In this document: positions 4,900 to 64,000 of the stretch, in pieces
Layout of the letters: each line of letters begins with the position of its first letter
How positions within the stretch are numbered: the stretch's first letter is position 1
Assembly: GCA_035221665.1 (NCBI GenBank)
Contig: CM069139.1
Span: forward strand, 50,902,001 to 50,966,000
DNA from: Okamejei kenojei
Taxonomy: Eukaryota
Direction of reading: 5' to 3'
Length of the DNA: 64,000 nt
Program-made: the position numbers and the translations under genes
The notes under the pieces: generated by a model
What the model was told of the DNA's origin: nothing
Databases searched by the model: none
The model's input: the letters and a program-made list of their open reading frames with translations, nothing else

Positions 4900-5130
4900 A
4901 AAAACAAAAAACTGCAGATGCTGGTTTATAACAGAGATAGACACAAAGTGCTGGAGAAACTCAGTGGATCAGGTAGCATCTTTGGAGAAAAACGATGGGT
5001 GACATTTTGGGTTGGACCCTACCTCAGACTCTGAAGAAGATTCTTCAGTCTGAAGAAGGGTCCTGACCAGAAAATCCACCCATCCTTTTTCTTCAGAATG
5101 CTGCCTGACCCGCTGAGTTACTTTGTGTCT
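4900..5130. mobile_element. Inverted pair of Penelope-derived short repeats
   Basis: ctgcagatgctgg...ctcagact followed by agtctgaagaagggtc...ctgagttac in opposite orientation. Confidence 0.75.
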
Positions 5131-11919: not shown

Positions 11920-13555
11920 GATACACATGATTGTGTGCGGACGTGGCGTCGAAGGACGTGAAGCCGAAGCGAAGAAGTGGAAGCCAAATAACTGAAAGGA
12001 AACGACGCCGAAAAGCCAAATAACCGAAAGCGTACGACGCAACGTGAAAAAGCCAAATAATCGAACGGACGCAACGCCGAAAGGCCAAATAACCGAAAGG
12101 ACGGGATGCCTAAAAGCCAAATAACTGAAAGGACGGGATGCCTAAAAGCCAAATAACTGAAAGGACGGGATGCCTAAAAGCCAAATAACTGAAAGGGCGG
12201 GATGCCTAAAAGCCAACTAACCGAAAGGGCGCAAAGCCAAAAAGCTAACTCACCGAACTAATGCAACGCCGAAAAGCCAAATAACAGACATGACGTCGCC
12301 GGGGGGTGGGGCTTGTCAGCGATTGGTCCAGACCGCCGCGTCCATCACATCACTGGCCGGAGGAGATGGGAGGGTGGGGGTCATTTTCCCCTGCACAAGA
12401 CTGCCAGGGGCCGGAGGGTGACTGGGCGCCCAAAACCCGAGCACCAAGATGTAAGCAGCCGAAGGAGCGCATCCCTCGGGACAGCCCCCACTCTTCCCTC
12501 CCGGGGTCAGCGCTGTCCGGCCACGGCTGCCCTCCCCCGTGCGGCTGCACTGTGATGGGCTGTGGGTCAGCAGCACACACACACGGGGCCGGGTGGAGCA
12601 GAGTTGGGGACAGTCTGGTCCCTCCGCCCACCCAGTCACTGACTGCGATGCACCGCCACCGGACCCCGACCCACACACCAGGGTGTTTCAACCCCCCGAC
12701 GTTTCGGGTCAAGACCATTCTTCAGAGCTGAAGCAAATATGTTTGTTATTGCTGCCTTTGTGTTGGGGAAGGGAGAAAGTTGCAGTTGAATAATTTGCAA
12801 TTTCCATTTCATTCTTTTCCACTCTGGGCTGATCGATACCACGTCGCTTGGCTATCTTTCACTCGTGCTCATGAGATTGAGTTCAAGATGCTCTAATGCG
12901 GTCATTGTTCCGAGCGCCAAATCCCTTCAGCTGTACCTGCAACTGAAGCTATGGGTGGATTAGTAGACCTTGAAGAGCCATTGACACTATGTTTTTACGT
13001 AGAGGGGTAATGGAGGTAAGGTATGTGATTTGACAGTAATGTATCGTCTGCGTGGAGGAAAAAAAGTATGATTTATTTGACACCGCTGCGAAAATGGCAT
13101 TGATAAATGCGCAAAGTTCAAAAAACAAATGAACTGCAAATAAACGGAAAAAATACAGATTATCTGGTGTTTTGTGCGTGGGAGCTTGTGTACGTTACGC
13201 AGGCAACCAGACGGTATTTCTGTGTTTAAACAGTAAAAAAATGTGCTTCTTGATGTCGGGGGGGGGGGGGGGGGGGGGAGAGAGATAAAATTGATCGCTG
13301 TCATGCACACTTGTCATTGGCCCACCAGGGAATTTGTGATCCCCACCCCCTCCCCCCCACACATGTTTTAAAATAGATTTACTATGGCTGCCAGCTCCCC
13401 GGGCCGTCTGTCTGAAAGCCGGGTGAATTTCAGTTATTTGGCTTTTCGGCGTCATACGCTTTTGGTTATTTGGCTTTTCGGCAGCATTTCTGTTCAATCA
13501 TTTGGCTTCCACTTCTTCACTTCGGCTTCTCGTCCGGGTATCAAACATGGTACCC
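11920..13555. mobile_element. Foldback-like DNA transposon with TIRs built from 32-bp tandem units (possibly Mutator-like)
   Basis: Left array (AAAAGCCAAATAACTGAAAGGACGGGATGCCT)n ~11975-12290; inverted copy ~13425-13540. Confidence 0.7.
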
Positions 13556-13844: not shown

Positions 13845-14715
13845 TGTAACAAAAATAAAGAACAGCTGGAAGAACTCAGCAAATCAGCCAACATCTGTGG
13901 AGGGAAATGGGCAGTTGAGGTTTTGGCCTGAGACCCTTCATCTCAACTAAAAGATTAAAGGGAAGTAGCCTGAATAAAGAGGTGGGGGGAGAGAGAGGTG
14001 AGGCAGGATTGATTGACAGATAACCGTACAGTGGGCAAAGGAAGGGTGGGAATGGCAACGGAGGCTGGGGGCAGGTAGATTCAGAAATCTGATGAAAGGA
14101 AGGTGAAAAAATGAACTGAATGAGTGGTGGTGGAAGATGGGGAAAAACAGGGAAGGGAGGAATGGGTATTGGGGAGCGGGGGTGTTCTAGTTGGAGGAAA
14201 AGTGTGGGGAAGGAAGGAAAATAAACAAAAGATGGAGGCTAGGGTTAAGGTGGGAAAAGAGGTGTGTGTTAGGGCATCGCGGGTAAAAGAGATGTTCTTT
14301 TTTCAAGAATCGCGTCTCCTACATCCTATGTCAAATCATCTGCCTATCTAAAAAACCCCATAATCTGTCACCACCTATCACTTGCCAGGCTTTGTCCCGC
14401 CCCTCCTCTCTTTCAGCTTTCTCCCCCCCCCTTCACCACCACAATCTTGTCTGAAGGGCTCCAACCCAAATGTTACCTGTCCATGTTCTCCAGATAATCT
14501 GCTTGCCACTGAGTGAGTTCACCGTCTATCTCTCACGTTTCCCTGATCCCTGACCAGTCTGAAGAAGGGTCTCGACCCGAAACGTCGCCTATCTCCTTCG
14601 CTCCTTAGATGCTGCTGCACCCACTGAGTTTCTCCAGCCTTTCGTGTACCCACTGAGTTACCTCAGCATGTTCTCTTTTATGGTGAACCAGTATCTACAG
14701 TTCCTTGTACCACCC
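13845..14715. mobile_element. Cluster of Penelope-derived fragments with a nested young copy (14515-14649)
   Basis: Old inverted copies plus a young copy flanked by CCACTGAGT at 14506-14514 and 14650-14658. Confidence 0.7.
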
Positions 14716-16192: not shown

Positions 16193-16780
16193 CCAGACCT
16201 CCCAACTATCCCGCTTTTGGCGGGATATTCCCGCTTTTTAGGTTCCCTTCCCGCCATTCCGATTTGTAACCTAATTATCCCGCTAAATTGACATTTCCGA
16301 TACCATGTATGTGTTATTATGTATATTGCAGAGATGCCAAGTGTCCCGGATTCGCCGTATTTTGTCCCGGCGAAATAACCTTTTTACGGTGTTCCGGCAG
16401 CCAAACATGCTGTTACGGAACACCGCCGCGCCGGTGTTCCTCCCGTGGTGAACGCCGGCGCCATGTGCCCCCGGTTTGCCAGCCCGGCAGCTCACAGCCA
16501 CGCCCGGCCCAGAGCCCGGGCGGCGCCGGCCCGCGCTATCAGCGGCACTTTCTTGCCGCCAGCCGGCCGCTCGCGGCAGCCCCATCACCGGGCCTCCCCC
16601 CCCACCCAGTGCGCAGGCGCAGACCCGCCGGCAACCTTGCCAAGTGCGCATGTGCCGCACCCGCCCGCCGGCAGCCCGCTGATCTGCACCAGTGCGCAGG
16701 CGCAGACCCGCCGGCAACCTTGCCAAGTGCGCATGTGGGGAAATATTATGAATTTTGACAATCAAATGTTGGGAGGTCTG
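16193..16780. mobile_element. hAT-like MITE containing a partial second MITE (16329-16737)
   Basis: TIR CAGACCTCCCAAC / GTTGGGAGGTCTG; interior starts CAGAGATGCCAA and matches the 24713-25671 element inverted. Confidence 0.75.
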
Positions 16781-21774: not shown

Positions 21775-21870
21775 AGTGGACAAAAAATGCTGGAGTAACT
21801 CAGAGGGTGAGGCAGCATCTCTGGAGAGAAGGAATGGGCGACGTTTCAGGTCGAGGCCCTTCGTCAGACT
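21775..21870 (-). mobile_element. Penelope-derived short repeat abutting the XRCC3 exon 4 donor
   Basis: On - strand agtctgacgaagggcctcgacctgaaacgtcgcc...gatgctgcc...ctgagttactccagc. Confidence 0.8.
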
Positions 21871-21873
21871 TAC

Positions 21874-22028
21874 CACATCAGCAACATGTTCAATAAAGAT
21901 GTTGTTACCAAACTTAATATTGTTTACAACGTCAGCAGGTACATCAGCTCTTAACATGGGCTGAAAGGCAATCAATTGCTGCAAACGTTTATTTGGAAAA
22001 GCATCCTCTGTACAAATATACACAGCTC
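21874..22028 (-). CDS. XRCC3: XRCC3 coding exon 4 ([19 protein letters not shown]...IFIEHVADV)
   Basis: 155 nt, tag/gtaagt borders, phase 1-0. Confidence 0.96.
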
Positions 22029-22299: not shown

Positions 22300-23590
22300 A
22301 GAGGGTAACAAATAGGGAAAGAATAAGTCCCCTTAAGGCTTATTGTAGTCATCTACTGCATATGCAGAACCACAGGAAATAGGTAAGATCATTACATTAA
22401 TATTTCTCAACAGAAATTTACCGTAGAAAAGTTCATAGGAATTAAGCAACTAAGGGAAATGAACAATAATGTATTGGAACATATCTACATCACAAAAGAG
22501 ATGGCCCATGTTGACAGTGTTAAATTGCAAGGGCTTGATAAAGTCAATCCACAGGAGACAAGGGAAATATTTGCAGTGGAACTGAGAGAGATATTTGCTT
22601 CATTGTAGTCAAGAGATGATGTACCAGAAAGTCAAGAAAGTGGCTTTGAGCCTTTATTAAAGAAGGGTTACAAGCCAGGGAATTACTGGTAATAGTTCCC
22701 AGAAGGTGGTGACGCACATCAACAGGGTCGTAAAGAAAGCTTTTGGCATGCTTCCCTTCATCAGTCATTGAGTCAGGATATCATTTTACAACTGTTTAAG
22801 CCGTTCGTGTGACCACACGGGCATTATGTGCAGTTTTTATCACCCAGCTATAGGAAGATTGTCATTAAGCAGGAATGCATGCAAAAAAGATTCACGAGGA
22901 TATTACCAGGAGTGGAGGGTGAGAAGCTGGATAGGGTGTACATTTTTTTCCATTCATCATTGGAGGCTGAGGGATGACATAGAAGTTTATAAAATCACGA
23001 GGGGTGTAGATAAGGTGGATAGTCACAGTCTATCTAGGATTTGAGGGTCTAGAACTAGAGGGCATAGATTTAAGGTGAGAGTAAAAAGACTTAAGGGGAT
23101 CTGAGGGGCAACTTTTTCACACAGTGATGGAAGTGAGAGAGATGTAGGGACAGGTGTTATGTCTCCTGTGGTTGCAGGGGAAAGTGCCTAGGGAGGGTGT
23201 GGGTTGAGTGGGAAAGGATGAGCAAACCAAGGATTTCCATTGGGAATGGTCTCTCTGGAAAGTGGAAAGGGGCAAGGAACAGATGTGACTGGTGGTGGGA
23301 TCACATTGAACGTGGCAGATATGTTGGGAGTATGATGCGGTGGATGCGGAGGCTAATGGGGTGAAAGGTGCAGGCCTGGGGAATTCTAGCTTTGTTTTGT
23401 CCGGAGGAAGGGGAGTGAGAGCGGAAATACAGCATAGTGGTTTAAAAGACATTTGGACAGGATGATGGAAAAGGTCTAGAAGGATAAGGGCAAAATGCAG
23501 GAAAATTGACTAGCTCAGGTAGACATGTTGGTTTGCTTGATTGAGTTGGGTGGAAGATTCTGTTTCCATACTCGTTAATTCTATGAATCC
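22300..23590 (+). mobile_element. Degraded CR1 LINE fragments with a nested Penelope ORF fragment (~23118-23435, -)
   Basis: CR1 RT C-terminal remnants (RLRDDIEVYKI); nested piece translates as DPTTSHI..PLSTFQRDHS..GTFPC. Confidence 0.7.
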
Positions 23591-24950
23591 AAGGGAGGTT
23601 TATTTAACTAAGTATCTTACACATTACTTTGAATGCATTCATTGAAAAATTCTGCACCATGTGCAAGGAGCTAGAAAGACCATCTCTTCCTCACTTTGCA
23701 TAGAAGACGTGATTTGTTTTTAATTGGCTTGTTAATTTACTTTTTTCCTTTTAATGTATCTGGAAACATTTTAGGTATTCATGATTAAGTTTGATCTTTG
23801 TGTTGCAACTTTAAATAACAGTTTTTTTTTGGGGTGGGGTTTTACCATGAATCCTTGATCCTAAGTTTCTTATTTTATTTTATTTTTGATATATTTATTA
23901 GAGGTACCGTAAGTTACATCAGTGTACATCCCATGTATATTATTACAATCATTGTACCCCTTAATTTTTTAAGGCTTTAGAAAAAAAGAAAAAAGAAAGA
24001 AAAATATCAACAGAGAAAGTAGAGAGTGAAAAAGAGTTGTGTAAGTGAAAAAGCATGCCGGAGGGAAAGGGAACCCTTGGTCGAAGAGTTAGAGAAATGA
24101 GATTAAGAGATAGACCCTGGAGAGGAGAAAAAAAAGGGAAAGAAAGAGAAGGAAAAAACAAAAGCCAGTTACTTTATTATAAACATCGTGCAAAAGGAAT
24201 CTACCAACTCGACAGTTTTTCTTCCCCCTTTACCAAGACCCGACACCGGTACTTTTTTGAGATATTCTTGCACCTTATCCTTGTAGTAGATTTATAAATG
24301 CAGACCACGTCTTATAGAAACAGTCTGATTTTCCTGCCAGTCGGAGTCTCATATTTTCCAAATGTAGTGTTTCAAACATAGTTGAAATCCACATATTAAC
24401 TGTTGGTATGGGAGTATTTTTCCAGAATTTTAAGATTAACTTTTTTCCAGTTATTAAGCCGTATTCAAATAGATTCTTTTGAAACACATTTAATTCAGGG
24501 CTATCTTCTGTTGTTCCAAAGATAATCCAGTCTGCTTTTAGAGTCAGTTTTGTGTCCAAAATTTTTGAATTTTTGTACAAAAGACAAATGAGTGCGCTAT
24601 ATAAGCTTCTTGACTTCAACATTTATCACAAATAGGTGAGACATTGGGAAAAAGTTTACATATTTTAGTTTTTGAATAGTATAATCTGTGTAAGATTTTA
24701 AATTGTATTAAGCAGAGATGCCAACCCTAAATTTAGTTCACAGTAACATTTAACCCATTTGTCCGTAACAAATGGGGTTAAATGCATTTCTCTCCGTAAC
24801 ACTCACCTGGGGTTGTTGCCGGCGGCTATGCGCCTGCGCACTGGTGCAGATCAGCGGGCTGCCGGCGGGCGGGTGCGGCACATGCGCACTTGGCATGGTT
24901 GCCGGCGGGTCTGCGCCTGCGCACTGGGTGGGAGGCCCGGTGATGGGGCT

Positions 24951-25168
24951 TTTTTTTAAAGAAGGAACTGCAGATGCTGGAGAATCGAGGGTACACAAAA
25001 AGCTGGAGAAACTCAGCGGGTGCAGCAGCATCTAAGGAGCGAAGGAGATAGGCGACGTTTCGGGTCGAGACCCTTCTTCAGACTGGGTCTCGACCCGAAA
25101 CGTCGCCTATCTCCTTCGCTCCTTAGATGCTGCTGCACCCGCTGAGTTTCTCCAGCTTTTTGTGTACC
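24951..25168. mobile_element. Palindromic Penelope-derived insertion with 15-bp TSD
   Basis: 85-bp perfect arms 24989-25073 / 25085-25169; CCCGGTGATGGGGCT at 24936-24950 and 25169-25183. Confidence 0.88.
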
Positions 25169-25284
25169 CCCGGTGATGGGGCTGCCGCGAGCGGCCGGCT
25201 AGCGGCAAGAAAGTGCCGCTGATCGCGCGGGCCGGCGCCGCCCGGGCTCTGGGCCGGTCGTGGCGTGGCTCGAAATCGCGCCAG

Positions 25285-25497
25285 GCCCGGCAACCCTCCC
25301 CCACTGCGCACGCGCGGCCACTGTGGCCCGGCAACCCTCCCCCACTGCGCAGGCGCGGTCACTAGGGACCGGCAACCCTCCCCCACTGCGCAGGCGCGGT
25401 CACTAGGGCCCGGCAACCCTCCCCCACAGCGCAGGCGCGGTCACTAGGGCCCGGCAACCCTCCCCCACAGCGCAGGCGCGGTCACTAGGGCCCGGCA
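25285..25497. repeat. 41-bp GC-rich minisatellite, about 5 copies
   Basis: GGCAA(C/A) recurs at 25289, 25330, 25371, 25412, 25453, 25494. Confidence 0.9.
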
Positions 25498-27682
25498 AAA
25501 TGCCGCTGATCGCGCGGGCTGGCAAACCGGGGACACATGGCGCCGGCGTTCTCACGGGAGGAACACCGGCGCGGCGGTGTTCCGTAACAGCATGTTTGGC
25601 TGCCGGAACACCGTAAAAAAGTTATTTCGCCGGGATAAAATACGGCGAATCCGGGACACTTGGCATCTCTGGTATTAAGGTGTGTCTTACGTTAATTGAA
25701 CATTTATGCACATTTAATAAATTTCTTTGGAAATTTTTATACTTAATTCTTTTTCCCAGTCTCTCCTGATACCTTCTGTTATTGGTATTTCTGCATTTAG
25801 AATATATTATATATATATTATTATATACATATATATATGATATTAGGTTTGCTGATTCAGCCTTTGTATTCATTACTTCTTCCAGTAAGTCTGGAGGCAT
25901 ATTGTGATAATCTTGTGCGTATTTTTTCAGATAGTCACAAATTTGGAAATATTTAAAATACTGATTGTTTCCCAAATTGTATTTTAGTTGTAATTGTTTA
26001 AATGATAATAGTTTTCCCGTTTCATACAAATCTCCGAAGGTTTTAATTCCGGCTCTTTCCCATTGTATAAATGCTTTATCTATAATTGAAGATTTAAACG
26101 AAGGGTTTGTACCGATAGGAGATAAGAGAGATAAATTTCTTAATTTTAAGTTGTGTTTTATTTGTTTCCAAATTCTAATTGTACTGTGTATAATTGGATT
26201 TTTGTTGTAATTTGTATTATTCATCATCATTGGTGAAAGAAGGATCGCTCCAATATTACAAGGAGAGCAGTCCTCTTTCTCCATAATAATCCAATCCGGC
26301 TGCTGGGGAGAGTTATCCAGCAATTGGATCATATTTCTAATATTTACAGACCAGTAGTAATACATGAAATTGGGGAGTGCTAATCCCCCTACTACTTTGG
26401 GTTTATTCAGATGAGCTCTTTGTATTCTGTGGGTTGTATAATCCCAAATAAAATTTGTGATATCTAAGTCCAGTTTTTTTAAAAACTTTTTGGGTAAGTA
26501 TATTGGAATTGATTGGAACAGGTATAAAATCTGTGGTAGAAAAATCATTTTTATGGCGTTTATTCGGCCTATTAAGGACATCGGAAGCATTTTCCAAAAT
26601 TTAATCAAGTTATATAGTTTCTTAAGTAGAGGGTTATAATTGCGTCAAACATGTCTTGTTATCTTCTAGTGATTTCGATACCCAAGTATTTAAATTTTTC
26701 CATAGCTATTTTAAAAGGAAACTGTAAAAGATGTGTAGAATCTTTTGGTTTTATTGACATGATTTCGCTTTTATTCCAATTTATTCTATATCCTGAAAAT
26801 GATTCAAAGTCCTCTATTAAGTTATTTGGTATAGTAATATGAGGTTTTGGTATACTATGATGAGGTTTTGTGTTGGAATATTTTGTTTTATATCCATGGA
26901 TATTCAGATGAGTTCTAATTCTTTCCGCTAGGGGTTCAATTATGAGAGCAAATAACAGCGGTGATAGTGAACATCCTTGTCTATTACTCCTTGACAATTG
27001 AAATTTCGTAGATAAATTATTGTTAGTTAATATTCTGCCCATTGGTTTATTATATAATAATTGAATCCCTAGAATGAAATTCTCTCCCAGTTGAAATTTT
27101 TGCAATACCCTGACCATATAATCCCATTCGACCTGATCAAATGCTTTCTCTGTATCCAACGATATGATTGATAGTTTTTGATCTTCAGTTTGGTGTGAAT
27201 GCATTATATTGAGCAGACGTCCAAATTATTAAATGATTGTCTCTTAGGGATAAACCCCGTTTGATCCGGATTAAATAAGTTTTTGAAAAGTGTTTTCGCC
27301 TTGACTGTTCTGGCAAGTTTAGGGGCCTGACTTAGCAAACAGATTTAGCAAACAAATATCAAACATTATTTTTTCATGTGATACTCTTAATGCGAAGACA
27401 ATATTTTTTTTGCAAAATCTTCCCTCATCGTTAATAATGCATTTTCATTACAACAATGCCTTTGAATTAAATCTACACTATTATTAACAGATGTATTAAG
27501 CAATGTTTTTTTTAAATCCTGGAAACATTCAGTTCAAACTCCTTTTGTAACAATTATATGGAACAAAATTATTGTATCCTGACACAAGTTTTCCTTTAAA
27601 ATGTTTTACATCCCAGTGAAAATAAATGCATCTTCTTTTGCTATATTTAACTAATTGTTTCAGAATACGATATAAAGTTTAC

Positions 27683-28290: not shown

Positions 28291-28632
28291 AATGTTTAAG
28301 AAGGAACTGCAGATGCTGGAAAATCGAAGGTAGACAAAAATGCTGGAGAAACTCAGCGGGTGAGGCAGCATCTATTGAGCGAAGGAAATAGGAGAGAAGG
28401 AGAACTTCTTCAAAGTAGGTATACATTGAGGAGATTTCGCAGTGGAGTAGACAAAATGTTTAAGAAGGAACTGCAGATGCTGGAAAATCGCAGGTAGACA
28501 AAAATGCTGGAGAAACTCAGTGGGTGAGGCAGCATCTATGGAGCAAAGGAAACAGGAGAGGAGGAGAACTTCTACAAAGTAGGCATACCTTGAGGATATT
28601 TCGCAGTGGAGTAGACAAAATGTTTAAGAAGG
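28291..28632. repeat. 164-bp tandem repeat (2 units + 14 bp) containing the Penelope-derived repeat
   Basis: AATGTTTAAGAAGG at 28291, 28455, 28619. Confidence 0.88.
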
Positions 28633-33154: not shown

Positions 33155-33540
33155 GAAACAAAGAATTGCAGAAGATAGACACAAACAGCTGGAGTAACTC
33201 AGTGAGTCAAACAGTATCACTGGAGAAAAGGAATAGGTGACGTTTCGCATCGAGATCCTTCTTCAGACTTCCTGCAGTTCCTTCTAGCAGTCTGAAGAAA
33301 GGTCTCGACCCAAAATGTCACCTATTCCTTTTCTCCAGAGATGCTGTCTAACCCGCTGAGTTACTCCAGCTTTTTGCATTTATCTTAGGTTTAAACCAAC
33401 ATCTGCAGTTCCTTCCTACACAAAGAATTGCAGATGCTGGTTAATACACAATAGGACACAAAGCGCTGGAGTAACTCAGCAGGCCAGAAAGCATCTCTGG
33501 AGATGGTGGACAGGTGACATTTAGGGTCAAGACCCGAAAT
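33155..33540. mobile_element. Cluster of three Penelope-derived repeats in inverted and direct arrangement
   Basis: Repeated ctggagtaactcag and agtctgaagaaaggtctcgaccc blocks. Confidence 0.75.
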
Positions 33541-34679
33541 AATATAGATTTAATGTCAGCAAATAGGGTTAGTGTGGATGGACAAAGTGCGTCAGCACAG
33601 ATGTGGTGAGCCAAATGGTCTGTTATTCGCACTTAGAGATGTATGTACAGCAAAGTACCATGGTGGTGGGGTCTCTCATTGTGCCTCTCATTGTGCTTTT
33701 CGCGGGGCAAATTCCAGATCTTTATTAAGGAGAAAAAATCCAACTCTTTTCCTTTTACCTCAAATTCTTGTACCCTAATTTACTCAGCAATATGCTTTTT
33801 TTCTGTTCTATTCATATGGATATCATAACATTACATATCTAGACTAAACTTCCCCCTCAGTCTTCCTTCTTTGAAAAATATTAATATATACCAACTTCAA
33901 ACACTCAACGGGTCAGACAAAATCTGTGAAATCCAAAACAGTGTTTCAAATTGAAGATCCTTCAGTCTTTGAAGAATCTTCAATTCAAAACATTAACCCT
34001 GTTTCTCTTAACAATGGCACCACCGGAGCTGTTGAGTGTAGTCGATATTTTCTGTTTTTATTTCAGATTTCCCGCATCTCCTTTGATTTACAATATGTTT
34101 AATTGTGCATCCTTATCGTATCAATCTACTCAATGTGACAGATTGAAACACCTTTCGGTATTAGACACAGTCCTCATCAGTGCCAGTTTGGGTTTGCACT
34201 TTAATTTGCTCCATTTAAGCTTCAGCAGAAGGTGCAGAAACCAGCATCTGCAGAAACCTGACTCCAGACTTAGGAATAGCTTCTTCCCGTTATCAGGCTT
34301 CTGAATGGTCCTTCCATAAGTTAGGCTACTGTCCAATTCACCACTACCTCTTGTAAACATTGGACTTTTGTCTATGAAACTGATGCCCTACAATCCTGAG
34401 AACTATATTCTACACTCTGTATCTACCCATTTGTTCTATCTATTGCTCTTGAGTTTGAGCTGATTGTGTCTATATATGGTATATCTGATCGGTTTGGATA
34501 GCATTCAATACAATGCTTTTCACGACATCTCAGTACGACAATAATAAATCTAAACCTGTGAAAATACATGGTGCAATACCAGGTACAATGCTCAAGTCAA
34601 GTGGCAATCGAGAGGCAAGAGTGTTTTATATTCATGTGTCCCGAAATGGAGCAAAGACAAAAACAATGTGCCCAATTCT

Positions 34680-34757
34680 CTCGACCCGAAACGTCGCCTA
34701 TCTCCTTCGCTCCTTAGATGCTGCTGCACCCGCTGAGTTTCTTCAGCCTTTTGTGTC
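34680..34757 (+). mobile_element. Young Penelope-derived short insertion
   Basis: Flanked by CCCAATTCT at 34671-34679 and 34758-34766. Confidence 0.75.
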
Positions 34758-34890
34758 CCCAATTCTATGTAGTTTGGAGCTTATTTGGAGGTTGTAGTGC
34801 AGGGCTAGGCAAATGCTGGTTAATACACAATACACCCCTTTTCTTCTCAGATTTCCAGCAATCTTTTATACAAAAGAGAGCAGCACTGAC

Positions 34891-35090: not shown

Positions 35091-35342
35091 CCCTCAGATG
35101 CTGCCTGACCCGCGGGATTGCTGCCGCGTTCTATCTTTCTCCTTGCAAACCAGCATCTGCAGCTCATTGTGTGTAAAATCACAGGATATTGTGTTGATAG
35201 CAGGGCCACATACTCTGGTCGAAACTTGTGCGGTTGCATTCCATGGTCCGTAAGCATTACAGCCATCCCAAAATACCAGTGTTTGGACTGTCCGTTTCCC
35301 TCCACATTTTCTGCCTCAACCGCCGAGCTCCTCCAGCACAGT

Positions 35343-35432
35343 CTGAAGAAGGGTTTCGGCCCGAAACGTTGCCTATTTCCTTCGCTCCATAGATGCTGCT
35401 GCACCTGCTGAGTTTCTCCAGCACTTTCGTCT
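35343..35432 (+). mobile_element. Young Penelope-derived short insertion with hammerhead-like core
   Basis: CTGAAGA-A-GGGT(TTCG)GCCC-GAAAC-GTT; 14-bp TSD TCCTCCAGCACAGT at 35329-35342 and 35433-35446. Confidence 0.85.
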
Positions 35433-35446
35433 TCCTCCAGCACAGT

Positions 35447-37765
35447 ATTGTATTGTATATCTTTATTATCATTTTTCCTGAGTACTTACATACCCAGAGG
35501 AAACGAAAAAACGTTGCTCAACCAGTGTCCATTCAGTGTGCGGTAAAAAATAAATAGAAATAAAAAATAAAAATACATATATCATGAGTTCCAATCGGCA
35601 GCGGCACAACAATGGCTCTGCTTCAGTGTGTCCAGGTTGGTGCGCGATACTTTGGCAGGGGGCAAAGTCCGTTTATCAGTCTTATAGCCTGCGGGAAGAA
35701 GCTGAGGAGCATCCTGCTGGTTTTGCAGCTGATGCTCCTGTACCTCTTCCCAGATGGCAGGATGGAGAATATGTGATGCGATGGGTGGTAGGGGTCTTTG
35801 ATGATGGAGATTGCTCTGCTGATACATCTCTTCCTGTATATGTCCAGCAGGAAAGGGCGTGGAGCACCAATAATCCTGCTGGCGGTCTTCACAATCCTGT
35901 CCAGTTGGTGGGGGCCCCCCCCCCCCCCCCCCCGTTTGTACGCTTGCAGCTCCTGAACCAGGAAGTGATGCCGTAGTTAATGTGCTCTCGATTGTCCCCC
36001 TATAAAAGGTTTCGTAGGTGTGCAGTGGGGAGACCTGCTTTCCGTAGTCTAAAACGGAGAGGGTGTAGTCGCTGCTGGGGCTTTCTCTTGACCAGTGCTG
36101 TGGTGTTGATCGTGGATGTCAGGTCATCTGACAGGTTGGAGTCCTAGGAACTTCACACTGCTGATCCTTTCCACATCAGCTCCATTGATGTGCAGAGGTG
36201 TAATGGCATTGTTTTCCCGCCCTCCTGAAGTCAACCACCATCTCCTTCGTTTTCCCACGTTGAGAATGAGGTTGTGGGATTTGCACCATCCTGTGAGCAC
36301 TCCACCTCCATCCTGTACGCCGACTCATCATTGTCACTGATGAGACCCCACCACTGTTGTGTCGTCAGTGAACTTGTTTGATGAAGTTGTTGTTGAGTCT
36401 AGCAGTACAGTCGTGTGTAAGCAGACTAAATAACAGCAGGGGGCTTAGAACACAGCCTTGGGGCGAGCCAGTGCTCACAGCTATGGTTTTTGATGCCCTA
36501 CTACCCACCCTGACTGTCTGCTGCCGTTGCGATAGAAAGTTCAGGACCCAGTTACATGTGCCAGCATCAACCCCCAATAACTCCAACGTCTTCACCAGCT
36601 GCTGCGGAATGATTGTGTTAAAAGCAGAGCTGAAGTCTATGAAGAGGATCCTGGCATAAGTATTTTTCCGATCAAGGTGTGGCAGTACAAGGTTCAGTGC
36701 TGTTGAGACTGCATCCTCTGTGGATTGGTTGGCTCTGTAGGCGAACTGCAGTGGGTCTAGGGCGGCAGGTAAGCTATTTTTGATATGCTGCATAACCAGT
36801 CGCTCAAAACACTTAATTACTATGGGTGTTAGAGCCACTAGTCGAAAGTTATTATGGCAGACTGGGTTTGGTTTCTTCGGGACAGGAACGATGGTGGCAC
36901 TGTTAAGACAGTTGGGCACTACTGCCTGGCTGAGCGAGGTGTTAAAAATGTCTGTGAAGACATCTTTCAGTTGCTCGGCGCAGTCTCTTAGAACGCATCC
37001 AGGAATGTTGTCCGGCCCTGTGGCTTTGCGTGGGTTGATGCTGGTAAAGGCCTTTTTAACTCCGGCTGCGGACAGCCTGAGCGACTGGTCACTGGGAGAT
37101 GGCAGTAGTGCACGTGTCTGGGTGCTGTTTTTAACCTCAAACCGTGCATAGAACTCGTTCAGTTCATCTGGTAGAGAGGGGTCGTTTTGGCATATCTGCA
37201 GTGGGGGGGGGGGGCTTGTAGTCAGTGATGGTATGAAATCCCTGCCACAAGCTACGTGTGTCTTTGTCATTTGTGAAGTGACTATTAAGTTTTTGTCCAG
37301 ACAGCCTCTTCGCTTCCCTGATCCCCCGGGATAGGTTACTCCTTGCCAGTTTGTATGCTGCATTGTCTCCAGATTTAAATACAGCATTCCGGATTCTCAG
37401 TAGGGAACACACTTCCCCAGTTAGCCAAGGTTTCTGATTGGCACGCCTCCTGACGGTTTTTACCACTGTTACATCCTCGATGCAATTATTGATGTATCCG
37501 ATGACGGATTCTGTGTATTCTTGGAGGTTGATGCCACTGTCATCTGTTGCTGCCTCTCTGAAGATGGCCCACTGTGTGGTTTCGAAACAGTCCTGTAGTG
37601 CCTCGGTAGCTCCCTCTGGCCATGTTCTGATTTCTTTGACCGTTGGCCTGTCCTGTTTCATCCTGGGTCTGTATGCAGGTGTGAGCATAACCGCTAGGTG
37701 GTCAGAATTGCCGATATGGGGGAGGGGGCTGCTTTATATGCATCTTTAATGTTGGTCTAATTTGA
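35447..37765 (-). mobile_element. 5'-truncated Rex1/Babar-type LINE (endonuclease end + RT), frameshifted
   Basis: [64 protein letters not shown]; (CAATA)n-like tail. Confidence 0.88.
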
Positions 37766-38229
37766 TTCTTTAAAGCGTTACAGTGTGTCTTTAAAGCGTT
37801 ACAGCCACCCAAAATATAATTGTTTAGACATTGTCCATTTCCAGCCACATGTGCTGCCTAAACCACTGAGTGCCTTTAGCAAGTTGTATCTTTAAGCATT
37901 CTAAATATTATTGTTTTGAGACTGTACATTTGCTGCCTGAACCGCAGTTCCCCTGGCACTTTGTGTCCTTAAGCATTCTATCCATCCTCAATATCAGTGT
38001 TTTCAGAATGTCAATTTCCCTCCACATTTGCTGCTCCAAAACGGTGAGTTCCTCCAGCACTTTGCTTCTTGCGCACATTCCCTTTATTGTTTATTTGCTA
38101 GCCTGCAAACAAGGGTGGTGGCAGGAAGTGTTTCATAACACACAGGAATGGCAGAAGCAAAGATCCTAACGTGAAACGGAATTTGTCCGAGTCCCTGCTC
38201 TTCTTGGCCGCGAGAGGCAGGAATATTGA

Positions 38230-40320: not shown

Positions 40321-41159
40321 AGAAAAAAATGCTGGAGAAACTCAGCGGGTGAGGCAGCATTTATGGAGCAAAGGAAATAGGCAACGCTTAGGGTCGAAAC
40401 CCTTCTTCAGATTGATGTGGGGGGGGGGGGAGAAAGGAAGAGGTGGAGCTGGAGGGCTGAGGGAGAGCTGAGAAGGGGAGGAGAAAGTAAGGACTGCCTG
40501 AAATTAGAGAAGTCAATGTTCATACTGCTGGGGTGCAAACAGCCCAAGCGAAGTATGAGGTGCTGCTCCTCCAATTTACGGTGGTCCTCACTCAGGGCAT
40601 GGAGGAGGCCCAGGACAGAAAGGTCGGATTCAGAATGGGAGGGAGAGTTGAAGTGCTGGGCCACCGGGAGATCAGGTTGGTTATTGCGGACCGACTGAGG
40701 GTGTTTGGCAAAGTGATCGCCAAGCCTACGCTTGGTCTCACCGATGTAGAGCAACTGACATCTAGAGCAGTGGATGCAATAGATGAGGTTGGAGGAGGTG
40801 CAGGTGAACCTCTGCCGCACCTGGAAAGAGTCTTCAACTCCCCCTTCCATTCCAAATCCGACCTTTCTGTCCTAGGCCTCCTCCATGGCTGGAGTGAGGA
40901 CCACTATAAATTGGAGGAGCAGCACCTCATATTTCGCTCGGGCAGGTTGCAACCCAGCGGTATGAACATTGACTTCTCTAATATCAGGTAGTCCTTACTT
41001 TCTCCTCCCCATCTCCGTTCTTCCTCAGTCCACTGGCTCCACATCTTCCTTTCTTCCTTCCGCCCCCACCCTCACATCAGTCTGAAGAAGAGTTTCGACC
41101 CGAAACGTTGCCTATTTCCTTTGCTCCATAGATGCTGCCTCACCCGCTGAGTTTCTCCA
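40321..41159. mobile_element. Penelope-like element: GIY-YIG endonuclease 3' part with inverted duplication
   Basis: FTCTSSNLIYCIHCSRCQLLYIGETKRRL..HF..RKLEEQHLI..GMN on -; ~330 bp repeated on + from 40832; hammerhead-like repeat at both outer ends. Confidence 0.88.
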
Positions 41160-41400
41160 TCAGTACCCCGTTCCTGCCTTCTTCCCATATCCCCTATCTT
41201 TAAGAGCCCTATCTAGCTCTCTCTTGAAAGTATCCAGAGAACCGGCTTCCACCGCCCTCTGAGGCAGAGAATTCCATAGACTCACAACTCTTTGTGTGAA
41301 AAGGTGTTTTTTCATCTCCGTTCTAAATGGCTTACCCCTTATTCTAAAACTGTGGCCCCTGGTTCTTGACTCCCCAACATCGGGAACATGTTTTCCCCCC
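41160..41400 (-). mobile_element. CR1 LINE 3' end
   Basis: SRTRGHS, FTQRVVSLWNSLP, FKRELD. Confidence 0.85.
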
Positions 41401-43646: not shown

Positions 43647-44469
43647 GTAAGAGATTTTATTTATTATCAGTTTATTACCTTTTTTGGCGTTATTTGGTGG
43701 TTTCCACTGGCAATAAAAATAAAAAAAACTAAGAAAACTGTAAATTTGCTTCAATGGGATAAATATTCAGTTGGCACAATATCTTTTATATGGTTCTAGT
43801 ACTTGGCAATGTGATATTTTTACACCATTTCCACATGTTTGTATCATGTCAGCATTCTGATATGGAGTAACTCAGCGGGTCAGATAGCATCTCTGGAGAA
43901 AAATGATGGGTGACGTTTCGGATCAGGCCCCTACCTCAGACTCGAAAAGGCACCCATCCTCTTTCTCCCAAGATGCTATGCTGCCTGACTCACTGAGTTA
44001 CTTTGTGTCTATTTTTGGTAGAAAACTTTGCTATTTGTTTCTTCATTAATATCACAATTGGTACATGTTATTTGCCCATTTAGTTCTCTCAACCATACCT
44101 GGTGTTAGGAAACCAGATAACGGGGATAATTAAGAAGGAGGGAATAGAATGTATGGTCTCCAATCACAATATTCACAATCCACATTATCTTGGACTTAAG
44201 AAATTACAAAATGAATCTCAAATTTCTGGCTTAATTTTTTGCATGTTGACAGGATTCCATATTTGTAAATAAATGTCTAAATATTGTTTGAAACTTGGCA
44301 ATGTCTATAGGTGACCTTTGAAAAATATACCAGGAAGATAAAATAGCATATTCAAATATTAATCTATTCATACATACTTTAAATTCTGATATTATCCTGT
44401 GGAATTCTGACTAGAGATCATCTTCTTAATGGTATGTTTACACCAAGCTTGGTGTTTCTATTTTTTATT

Positions 44470-60467: not shown

Positions 60468-60563
60468 AGGTAGACAAAAATGCTGGAGAAACTCAGCAGG
60501 CGAGGCAGCATCAATGGAGAGAAGGAATAGGTGACGTTTTGGGTCGAGACCCTTCTTCAGACT
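60468..60563 (-). mobile_element. Penelope-derived short repeat with intact hammerhead-like 5' core
   Basis: On - strand agtctgaagaagggtctcgacccaaaacgtcacc...; GAAA mutated to AAAA. Confidence 0.8.
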
Positions 60564-60977
60564 AAAGAAGATTGAATTGTATAGTTTATTTCAAAACAGA
60601 TCTGATGATTTGCAAGGAAAGCAGATAATTATGGTGAAACAAAAGTCCTTAAGCTAAATTCCCGTTCAGTGATAGTATTAAAGTTAAGGCCCTGGTCATT
60701 GTTTTTCAGCACGGAACAAATAAAAACCGTTCCATTCAATTTACCAAGTACTGTGATGGGTAATGAGCATTTCTCATGATTTTAACTGAATTTGGCATGG
60801 TATGCTCTTTTGATAGAGGAATTAGAGCTGTTTAATTAGTTTTGCGGTAGACGGGAACGCACAATTTCAAATACTTTTAATTCCTGATTTTTGGCCAATT
60901 GTTAAATCTAAAATAGCCAGAGCAAGCTGATTACAAATAAAACTTGTAATGAATAATTACCTTTCATGCGATTGTAT

Positions 60978-61903: not shown

Positions 61904-63067
61904 CTGTAAAACAAAATAAATTGTTTTTACTACTTATTTCATTTACCACTTCAAGCTGCTTTGTGCATACTGATGCTGCTCGGGATCAGATTATTATGGC
62001 ACTATTAAAAAAATCCAAGGTAAGAAAAGTTTGAAATAATTTGACATGGACAATTACATGTGGAGTGAGACTAAAATCAATTCAAGGATGAGAATTTTAA
62101 AATTGGGGTGTTGGATCACCAATTAACAGAGCATGGTGTGAATGGGACATGATTTGGTTTAGTATCTAAGCACAAGTCTTGTACGCTAAAGTTGTGAACG
62201 ACAGAAAATGCAAATCCAACAGGAAAGAAATGTTATGGGTGAAGAAACATTTTCCAATTAATTTTCTTCCATCCTCACCTGCTCAGACAAAAATATTACA
62301 TCAGATTAGGCCTGCAGCATATATGAAAGATGACCTAAATTAAATTTGATATAGGATAATCCTAAAGTTAGTGCTTAAATGGTGACGATAATCTATTTTT
62401 TCATTGTTATAATAAATAACTAATCGATCTTACGGTTCCTAAATCGAAAAGTTCACTGCAACATAATAAGGAATCTTTTCTATTTCTGTTATGTCCATCA
62501 AATTAATTCTAAAAACAAATGATTAATTGTTGGTTTAAAATACAGAAAATGCCATTTTCATCAGATGGACCCTCGGATTCAACACTAATTTAAATCATCC
62601 ACATTTTAACATATCAATTGATTACATTGACAAGGCCTCTTTACGGTTTAAAAAAAAAGAAACAACAACTTTTAGAGAGCCCTGCACTCTTTCCCCAAGC
62701 TACAGAATTGAGAACAGGCTCCTAATTCAAGGGGTAGGCCATTTAGGACAACTGATGAAACATTTCTACATGAAAAGATGGTGAAGCTTGGTCATTGATC
62801 GTTTTCAAAAGAGAGATAGAATTTGTACTCTGTACTAAACCTCACAGTACTAAAACCCAAATAATCTGCTCAAAGAACCTATGAACAGAGCGTCTAAGAA
62901 ATTAGCACACACCGTGTGTACTGGGAAAATAGTTGGATTTTTGTATTTTAACAGTGCACCAAACTGTTTTATGAATGAGCAATATTTGGTTAGTTTTTGT
63001 TACAATGGCATACATTATTGAAAAAGCATAAACAAAATTATAAAGTCACAATTTAGTTCATATTTAC

Positions 63068-63267
63068 CCCAAGCAGATTACGAGGAACATAGCCTTCTTT
63101 ATCATTCAATCGAGCCCACCACCAGTCTGTTTCAACATCATCTTTGTGTCTCACAATTGTCAGAGGTTCTCCTTCTTGGAATGATAATTCATCATTGTTC
63201 TTGGCTTCATAATCCCACAAAGTATAAACAACACCTTTGTTCATCACACCCATTTTTTCTTGCACTC
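63068..63267 (-). CDS. PPP1R13B: ASPP1 SH3-domain exon ([12 protein letters not shown]...[19 protein letters not shown])
   Basis: 200 nt, tag/gtaaat; SH3 motifs LWDY, ELSF, WWW, GYVPxN. Confidence 0.94.
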
Positions 63268-64000
63268 CTATTGTGGGTTGAAAATAATTATCAATGATTT
63301 CAGATTTATCAAACTTGCACAGGTCATTGTAGAGAACGTCTGTTTTATGGATTTGTCTACAGGTCAAGCACATTTTTCCCCCCACCTTTTTCAGAAACAT
63401 ACGTTTTTAAAACCCTGGGCATATGCTACTCTAGAAAGGAAATGCATGGAAACAAGTCAGTTTCTCTCTAAATAGTAGCCCGAGATCAACTGGCAATCCT
63501 TTGAATACAAGAAAAAGGAATTGCTTTTTAGTGTAATTTCAAGCAACAATAGTGGCCTCAAAAGAGACCTTCACCCCGAGTAATTATCAAACTGTGCCAC
63601 ATATAATTCTAACAATGATGAATTATTTTTTAGCTTATTTCAAGTTTATTGAAAAAAAATGACGCCAATTTACTTTAGTAATTCTGTTACGTTTCTATCA
63701 CAAACGATACATATAAAATAATAATAAATGGCAGAGATATCTTGGAAGTACTAGTTCCTGGAACAAAATCTCTGAAGCTGCTGTATCGCAAATGATGAAT
63801 TCTGAACACAAACTTGAATCATCAAAGCAAAGACTGAACATGATGTAATAGCAAAGTATCATTGAATCTATCAAAGCGCAGCAGTAGTATAAAATACTGT
63901 AAATATCCAAGGGCAATCAGCATCGGCATCAAGGGGATGCATTTCAGGTCTGACCCGTCATTGTAACTAATGCATAAATAAATACTGCCTGACCTGCTAA

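Follow-up and report, generated by a model that had tools for sequence, protein, structure and literature searches.

A short hammerhead-bearing repeat in Okamejei kenojei as the end piece of an abundant Penelope-type element, with insertion ends that suggest run-off copying of its RNA leader

Copies of the repeat in the window

Using a profile of one short repeat, we found 24 matches in the window, by which we mean the whole stretch of 64,000 nucleotides analysed here (Okamejei kenojei, assembly GCA_035221665.1, contig CM069139.1, positions 50,902,001 to 50,966,000), bearing out the more than 15 copies counted in an earlier note on this DNA. The target copy is a short subfamily-B Penelope unit of 98 nt at 35339..35436 (+), spanning −4 to +93 in a numbering whose zero is the C of the hammerhead CUGA (C3, window position 35343). 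It lies in a 14-bp target-site duplication with a left copy at 35329..35342 (+) and a right copy at 35433..35446 (+); the last 4 nt of the left copy are also element positions −4 to −1, and both ends of the unit overlap the duplication by microhomology. Its minimal hammerhead motif (35343..35370, +) comprises the core, a bulged A, a 5-bp helix II, the palindromic ACGU and GUU, with a helix I of 2 bp and a predicted cut after 35370. Identity is our one basis for regarding this copy as recent: it is 98% identical to its nearest copies, and copies within subfamily A differ pairwise by about 2.8%.

An old, decayed copy of the unit (family D3; weak profile score of 13.8 bits) forms part of the insertion target at 35296..35338 (+). 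The 3′ tail of an unrelated LINE (35445..37733, −, limits approximate; RT frame at 36365-37396) adjoins the right duplication. Very old, decayed 3′ halves of the unit flank this LINE (35296-35338 and 37839-38067, those on the right about 90 bp apart), perhaps as the relic of a tandem array split by later insertions. Two window copies hinted at a preference for inserting into older copies of the unit, which we rejected on a count of 4/67 against 85/2000 random sites, the target copy's own old neighbour scoring below the threshold used.

Three further insertions in the window have direct repeats. A subfamily-A copy at 14519..14651 (+) spans −40 to +92 and so begins within the upstream pLTR, has 4 extra nt at its 5′ joint, sits in an older copy and is flanked by 9 bp at 14506 and 14650. 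At 24951..25169, a head-to-head subfamily-A insertion with a minus arm (−5 to the tail end) and a plus arm (+8 to +92) is flanked by 15 bp at 24936 and 25169; a paralogous empty site at 16578..16592 (−) holds the 15-mer once. The third, a subfamily-A copy at 34679..34760 (+), spans +11 to +92 without the CUGA core and has 9 bp at 34671 and 34758. All four repeats that had been reported (9, 15, 9 and 14 bp) proved exact and maximal, and between unrelated flanks a direct repeat of at least 8 bp arose by chance in 4/600 trials. With one start at −40, one at +11 and one inverted pair, the four copies do not form the single size class in which they had been placed. Their plus-strand arms do share a 3′ end at +92/+93, as the earlier note had it, but genome-wide there are two such ends, near +92 and near +126. 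The full hammerhead motif that it had described for the best copies is indeed present at 14559, 35343 and 25081 (−), but in only three of the 24 window matches.

The repeat had also been seen to cap a GIY-YIG fragment. A GIY-YIG match does lie at 40326..41162, but it scores below the Pfam cut-off (E 0.0098), and the feature is a head-to-head subfamily-B insertion with a GIY-YIG coding fragment (arms 40326-40829, −, and 40832-41162, +); reading both of its ends revealed no duplication. The C at 21861, cited as evidence for a variable N in the core, belongs to an older subfamily-C copy (21778..21875, −) in which helix II is mismatched too, and N7 is 93% conserved versus 93-96% at its neighbours (163 arms). 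Two tandem 164-bp pieces at 28291..28632 (−) run from about +29 through the tail into the ORF start and lack the hammerhead core. Older head-to-head pairs are found at 4938..5127, 33176..33379 and 43863..44010, and a single older copy at 60473..60567 (−).

Other features in the window include an old divergent relative at 13861-13943 (−), in which, by eye, about 5 bp could form between the bases flanking the decayed motif, a hint that the ancestral helix I was longer. An old Penelope ORF fragment at 23139-23422 (−) has 67% identity to the copy at locus L051, described below. Tandem arrays of 41 bp (25284-25498) and 32 bp (11981-12285) are unrelated to the unit. An SH3-domain exon lies at 63053-63406 (−), which makes it probable that the window overlaps a host gene.

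The element carrying the unit and its hammerhead motif

The 100-base repeat is the end of a highly abundant Penelope-type element and holds its putative ribozyme; it is not a separate mini-element. Upstream of the unit, the 30 best matches to the 14553 copy continue for 0 to over 2 kb in one common sequence encoding RT and GIY-YIG, and full-length copies carry the unit at both ends, immediately 5′ of the ORF and again downstream of it. Locus L051 has a 583-bp pLTR, a tail, an ORF and a second pLTR. In the target's own subfamily B, 18/19 endonuclease loci end in the target's unit, and within the 1.5 kb examined, six reach the RT catalytic motif or continue beyond it. The Penelope origin proposed in the earlier note was upheld, and so was a Penelope RT/GIY-YIG as the mobiliser, but its distinct, non-autonomous, retrozyme-like family was not supported, since the unit ends long coding copies in both young subfamilies.

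Based on the features tested, the element is an endonuclease-positive (EN+) Penelope-like element of the Neptune/Nematis type with a predicted minimal hammerhead. A single ORF holds RT followed by a C-terminal GIY-YIG, as EN+ elements do: locus L055 has a 678-aa frame with RVT_1 (E 1.2e-06) and GIY-YIG (E 0.002), each just under the Pfam cut-off, and RVT_1 is above it at L032. A C-x4-C-x2-C linker between RT and endonuclease, as in the Neptune/Nematis CX2-5CxxC, is present in L031 and L051; its first Cys is mutated in L055. The pLTRs in partial tandem, the inverted copies and the optional tail likewise fit the EN+ pattern. We found 1617 protein homologues; those listed mostly have RT and some have GIY-YIG, the closest named ones coming from sharks and rays (63-73% identical). 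The L051 ORF has a stop in the endonuclease, a 1.47-kb internal tandem duplication (L051:1191-4121) and a long, proline-rich N-terminal region.

Abundance was measured in an arbitrary sample of 140 pieces, each of 10 kb and taken at a fixed round-number coordinate, i.e. 1.4 Mb of the 2.76-Gb genome. We call a single aligned copy of the unit an arm, so that an inverted insertion has two; arms belonging to one insertion are not independent. The sample held 40 young subfamily-A arms and 629 profile matches, which extrapolates from 1.4 Mb to about 79,000 young arms and about 1.2 million arms in total across the whole genome.

The motif we scored was CUGA-N-GA-A / helix II / GAAACG-UH, whose descriptor had 58 matches in the 1.4 Mb versus 2, 0 and 1 in Markov controls. 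The core, bulged base, helix II and palindromic helix III are those of a minimal type I hammerhead, in line with the earlier description, which had also recognized the short helix I. Helix I has at most 2 bp in 46/58 matches; one of at least 4 bp, as that class would have, is largely lacking, with 4 bp in 4/58. Core nucleotides are intact in all subfamilies; by eye, four subfamily changes within the motif are compatible with the fold, and about 14 downstream columns differ between subfamilies. Covariation was 0.148 versus 0.146 in shuffled alignments, 177/500 of which scored as high (100 of the 163 arms plus three window copies). None of the minimum-energy folds of six stretches forms the hammerhead (z 1.40 to −1.69), and in the predicted fold of the tailed 131-nt form the core would pair with the tail. 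An Rfam scan of the window gave eight matches at E up to 5, none of them a ribozyme. A tandem unit lies upstream in 3/163 arms, and the only unit tandem reported in the window lacks the core, so the tandem units with a complete hammerhead that characterize retrozymes were not found there.

Ends and junctions of the copies

The 40 young arms in the 1.4 Mb have two 3′ ends, 22 near +92 and 18 near +126, the latter being the known Penelope "tail." For 5′ ends we scored 38 of the 40, leaving out one at a locus edge and one B-like arm. Among these, 22/38 reach −1, and 17 of the 22 then stop at −5..−1, versus the 3-13% expected in a 5-nt window from the downstream stop rate; the other five run beyond −100. 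Coverage is 32 at −1 and 9 at −5. Among core-reaching arms of all ages (163), what lies upstream is unique, inverted or tandem sequence in 105 and pLTR in 58, and contigs of three other runs, probably DNA, have loose ends at −4..−2. Given this 5′ stop and the two 3′ ends, the class of about 90-130 bp proposed in the earlier note is real, at 95 and 130 nt. No young arm (0/38) in the 1.4 Mb starts at the predicted cleavage site (+26..+30). We discarded 5′-start peaks at +34 and +42 in old copies as alignment artefacts.

The 5′ end is most likely set by transcription start. A TATA-like run is present near −30 in subfamily A, and the bases around −3 fit the initiator consensus. A G precedes the start in 19/48 copies versus 14.3 expected (p 0.10; 12 subfamily-B long copies left out of the 5′ base count), a weak cap signature, and in 10/18 versus 5.3 expected where the added bases are certain (p 0.02, post hoc). 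A promoter in the pLTR is described for D. virilis elements (PMC2377424) and for Adineta elements (PMC3846280) in the portions of these papers that we consulted.

Selected and arbitrary loci pooled, an exact duplication flanks 54/141 simple and 20/30 inverted insertions; duplications are long, as the earlier note had claimed, at 8-18 bp and commonly 13-16. For junction counts we kept 74/87 joints and removed 13 that were poorly anchored. Microhomology of at least 1 nt is present at 30/39 joints at +92 (41.5% simulated) and 24/35 at +126 (45.8% simulated), so the microhomology at the priming end that had been postulated is found, at 1-4 nt and in excess over simulation; in inverted arms alone it is not significant (p 0.12 and 0.10). 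The first duplicated base follows the template, being C/T in 32/39 at +92 and A in 21/35 at +126 (Fisher p 4e-05). The CC target motif was rejected: CC begins just 7/47 duplications at the +92 end and lies in the first four bases in 10/47.

Head-to-head insertions pair one +92 arm with one +126 tailed arm in 26/30 cases, versus about half if the ends were chosen independently. This pairing is seen in 20/20 insertions with a duplication and in 14/15 of those in the arbitrary sample. The inverted joints vary between copies.

Composites were sought among 20 of the 40 loci listed that hold the ORF start. Ten have at least 250 bp of upstream pLTR; four start at −163, −103, +42 or +82; and the other six, together with L021, have the leader and ORF start followed by a second unit, giving seven composites. 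The starts of their two pieces are (3,2), (2,2), (7,7), (2,2), (1,−1) and (−2,−5), with one unpaired; most lie at +1..+7, slightly downstream of the solo peak at −5..−1, and a duplication is present in four of the six ORF-start loci. In L253, both pieces carry a variant found in 3/101 matches. The inner joints fall at various points of the ORF and in no case at +28, with a few extra A or AG bases in 5/7 composites.

Since composites start near 0 and continue into the ORF, RNAs starting there include the ORF start. Their structure is consistent with double copying of a single RNA whose physical 5′ end lies near 0, either by an end-to-end jump or through a ligated circle; these two routes would leave the same composite pattern, and neither would use the cut site. 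Neither the genomic 5′ ends nor the composite joints gave any sign of the predicted self-cleavage, and many leaders would begin inside the motif, which counts against ribozyme activity, as do the short helix I, a covariation no higher than in shuffles and folds that miss the motif. The ribozyme may act on read-through or 3′ copies, aided by protein as in Anolis. At L252, L253, L259 and L266, the inner joints cluster at +564..+579 and carry short A-rich additions, which suggests that the RNA often ends prematurely at these ORF positions.

Run-off copying and the alternatives

We consider it likely, with a probability of roughly 70%, that the short copies are run-off cDNAs, with priming in the 5′ leader of uncleaved RNA of the element itself. 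This RNA would begin between about −5 and +7, probably at a capped Pol II start. The endonuclease would make two staggered nicks about 14 nt apart, and a nicked end would anneal to the RNA at +92 or +126 through 1-4 nt. Long, variably truncated copies would result from priming in the 3′ unit, and the 95/130-nt class, unable to extend beyond the RNA end, from priming in the 5′ unit. Both nicks could prime on one RNA, where priming at +92 first would leave +126 free and the reverse would not; we infer that such dual priming would produce head-to-head insertions with one short and one tailed arm. An enzyme jump from the RNA 5′ end to a downstream point would copy the leader twice, and in short copies the ribozyme would be a passenger. 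More tentatively, and at a little under even odds, the stubs, about a million of them, may record this reaction as a whole: a capped RNA whose 5′ end lies at the first bases of the hammerhead, a dimeric enzyme, two staggered internal priming sites, each serving one nicked strand, and 5′-to-3′ jumps on that RNA that build partial tandems. If true, a single scheme would account for tail, inverted pLTRs and solo hammerheads, with no need of ribozyme cleavage or antisense templates.

It is unlikely that the short copies come from non-coding donors, i.e. from truncated copies or units that are transcribed and mobilised in trans, SINE-like and without circles. The extrapolated arm numbers and the 33 short versus 5 long arms in the young arbitrary sample would suit such donors, as would one allele that occurs in three short arms and none of 50 long ones, and Adineta pLTRs act in trans according to the text consulted (PMC3846280). 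Against them, the three main haplotypes occur in short and long copies alike, and the net divergence between 29 short and 50 long arms is 0.0002, with 196/1000 permutations as high (p 0.196), in a test of limited power that covered subfamily A only and 90 columns, had four B-like copies removed and drew its long copies mostly from selected searches. The arbitrary sample alone (18 short, 5 long) gave p 0.32, and an earlier version with the B-like copies left in gave p 0.014. The lineage separate from coding copies that would mark an independent non-autonomous family was thus not found among these arms. In addition, composites with the same 5′ start run into the ORF, which is missing from the solo unit, and inverted joints differ from copy to copy.

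We judge it quite improbable that the RNA extends further upstream and that the 5′ cliff reflects a pause or joining preference of the enzyme, imposed by structure, a protein, a splice-acceptor-like site or the near-palindrome at −4..+2. The upstream sequence resembles a 3′ splice site in being rich in pyrimidines and ending in CAG, and a D. virilis intron ends at helix I in the part of PMC4209133 consulted. Several inverted joints overlap at the near-palindrome, which could fix some of them without an RNA end. The splice-acceptor reading was nevertheless rejected, as copies with extra bases have no upstream exon in common. Simple copies with a duplication stop at the cliff too, and the two pieces of one insertion share uncommon starts, e.g. 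+2 or +7, both of which argue against this reading.

That the hammerhead cuts tandem or dimeric transcripts into monomers that are circularised and then inserted is very improbable: the intact core with its compatible changes, the 58 descriptor matches versus 0-2 in controls and the likeness of composites to copies across a circle joint would agree with it, but none of the 38 young arms has its 5′ end at the cut site, composites are joined at −5..+7 and at varied ORF positions, helix I is mostly at most 2 bp, covariation does not exceed that of shuffles, the folds lack the motif and the intact cores in the window are not arranged in tandem arrays, results that, with the near-zero divergence of short from long copies, speak against the retrozyme-like family of the earlier note.

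Two well-known reactions resemble the run-off scheme in part. In L1 twin priming, the inverted arm is primed by a second nick; here, both arms cover a common part of the template and start from two fixed sites. Retroviral strong-stop DNA is a short cDNA running off the RNA 5′ end, whereas here the run-off product would itself be integrated.

We compared the element with related systems, relying in each case on the parts of the cited sources that we consulted. EN+ Neptune/Nematis Penelope-like elements (PLEs) likewise have RT then GIY-YIG, the CX2-5CxxC linker, pLTRs, heavy 5′ truncation, partial tandems, inverted copies and a 30-40 nt tail often at one end only (PMC8557442, PMC3846280). Their reported duplications are 8-10 bp, versus mostly 13-16 bp here, and the very high copy number here is unlike the elements described. 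The sharp 5′ stop at the ribozyme edge and the near-obligate pairing of short with tailed arms are absent from the descriptions compared (PMC8557442, PMC3846280), in which head-to-head joints are attributed to antisense self-priming (PMC3846280).

The motif shares with metazoan PLE minimal hammerheads the core, the bulged base before helix II, G10.1-C11.1 and the palindromic 15.2-16.2; those motifs mostly occur singly and have been ascribed to truncated PLEs (Cervera and De la Pena 2014, PMC4209133). Helix II has 5 bp here versus 6-8 there, and the 2-bp helix I, as in D. virilis, is shorter than their usual 4-5 bp (PMC4209133). Cartilaginous fish are not named in the main text of this survey that we consulted, and its supplements may list shark or ray motifs (PMC4209133). 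Metazoan non-LTR retrozymes are also non-coding, hammerhead-bearing and related to PLE pLTRs, but have tandem arrays, mostly canonical type I ribozymes and circular RNA, whereas copies here lie scattered or head-to-head, carry a minimal motif and end at points that bear no relation to the cut site (PMC7229834, bioRxiv 10.64898/2026.07.22.740005).

The element also resembles Anolis Poseidon PAc in vitro, where the tail is defined by two sites within the RNA at which RT starts, both strands are nicked and extended, and the substrate is uncleaved RNA with no need of ribozyme cleavage (Frangieh et al. 2024, PMC11167929). Shortening the template 5′ end shortens the product. The PAc ORF starts inside the hammerhead, versus a first ATG at +162 here, and PAc priming is non-homologous at AT-rich sites, versus 1-4 nt of microhomology in excess here (PMC11167929).

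The observation behind this study is real and mostly known, and the sequence family is ordinary. Our literature search, with supplements and most subscription journals outside its scope, returned nothing on the family, on a fixed 5′ stop, on the strict way in which ends are paired or on the twice-copied leader. The copies bear on how PLE tails, inverted ends and partial tandems form and on the role of the hammerhead, and the genome supplies young insertions by the tens of thousands, with ends that can be counted. These ends favour a testable scheme in which the ribozyme would not be used to make template ends. As a warning, solo pLTR stubs should not be called retrozymes or SINEs.

Several loci outside the window held copies in shared contexts. 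L060, L065, L076 and L079 contain one subfamily-B inverted insertion, counted once; its flanks are common to the four loci, so it was amplified as part of another repeat or of a duplication. L219:1628-1800 and L222:8693-8870 hold one and the same 66-bp tandem, which consists of the 3′ part of the unit from GAAA on and lacks CUGA. Finally, L144:5500-6300 and L161:1490-1950 share an identical old hairpin joint and its flanks in opposite orientation, and these are Penelope stubs carried within a larger repeat.
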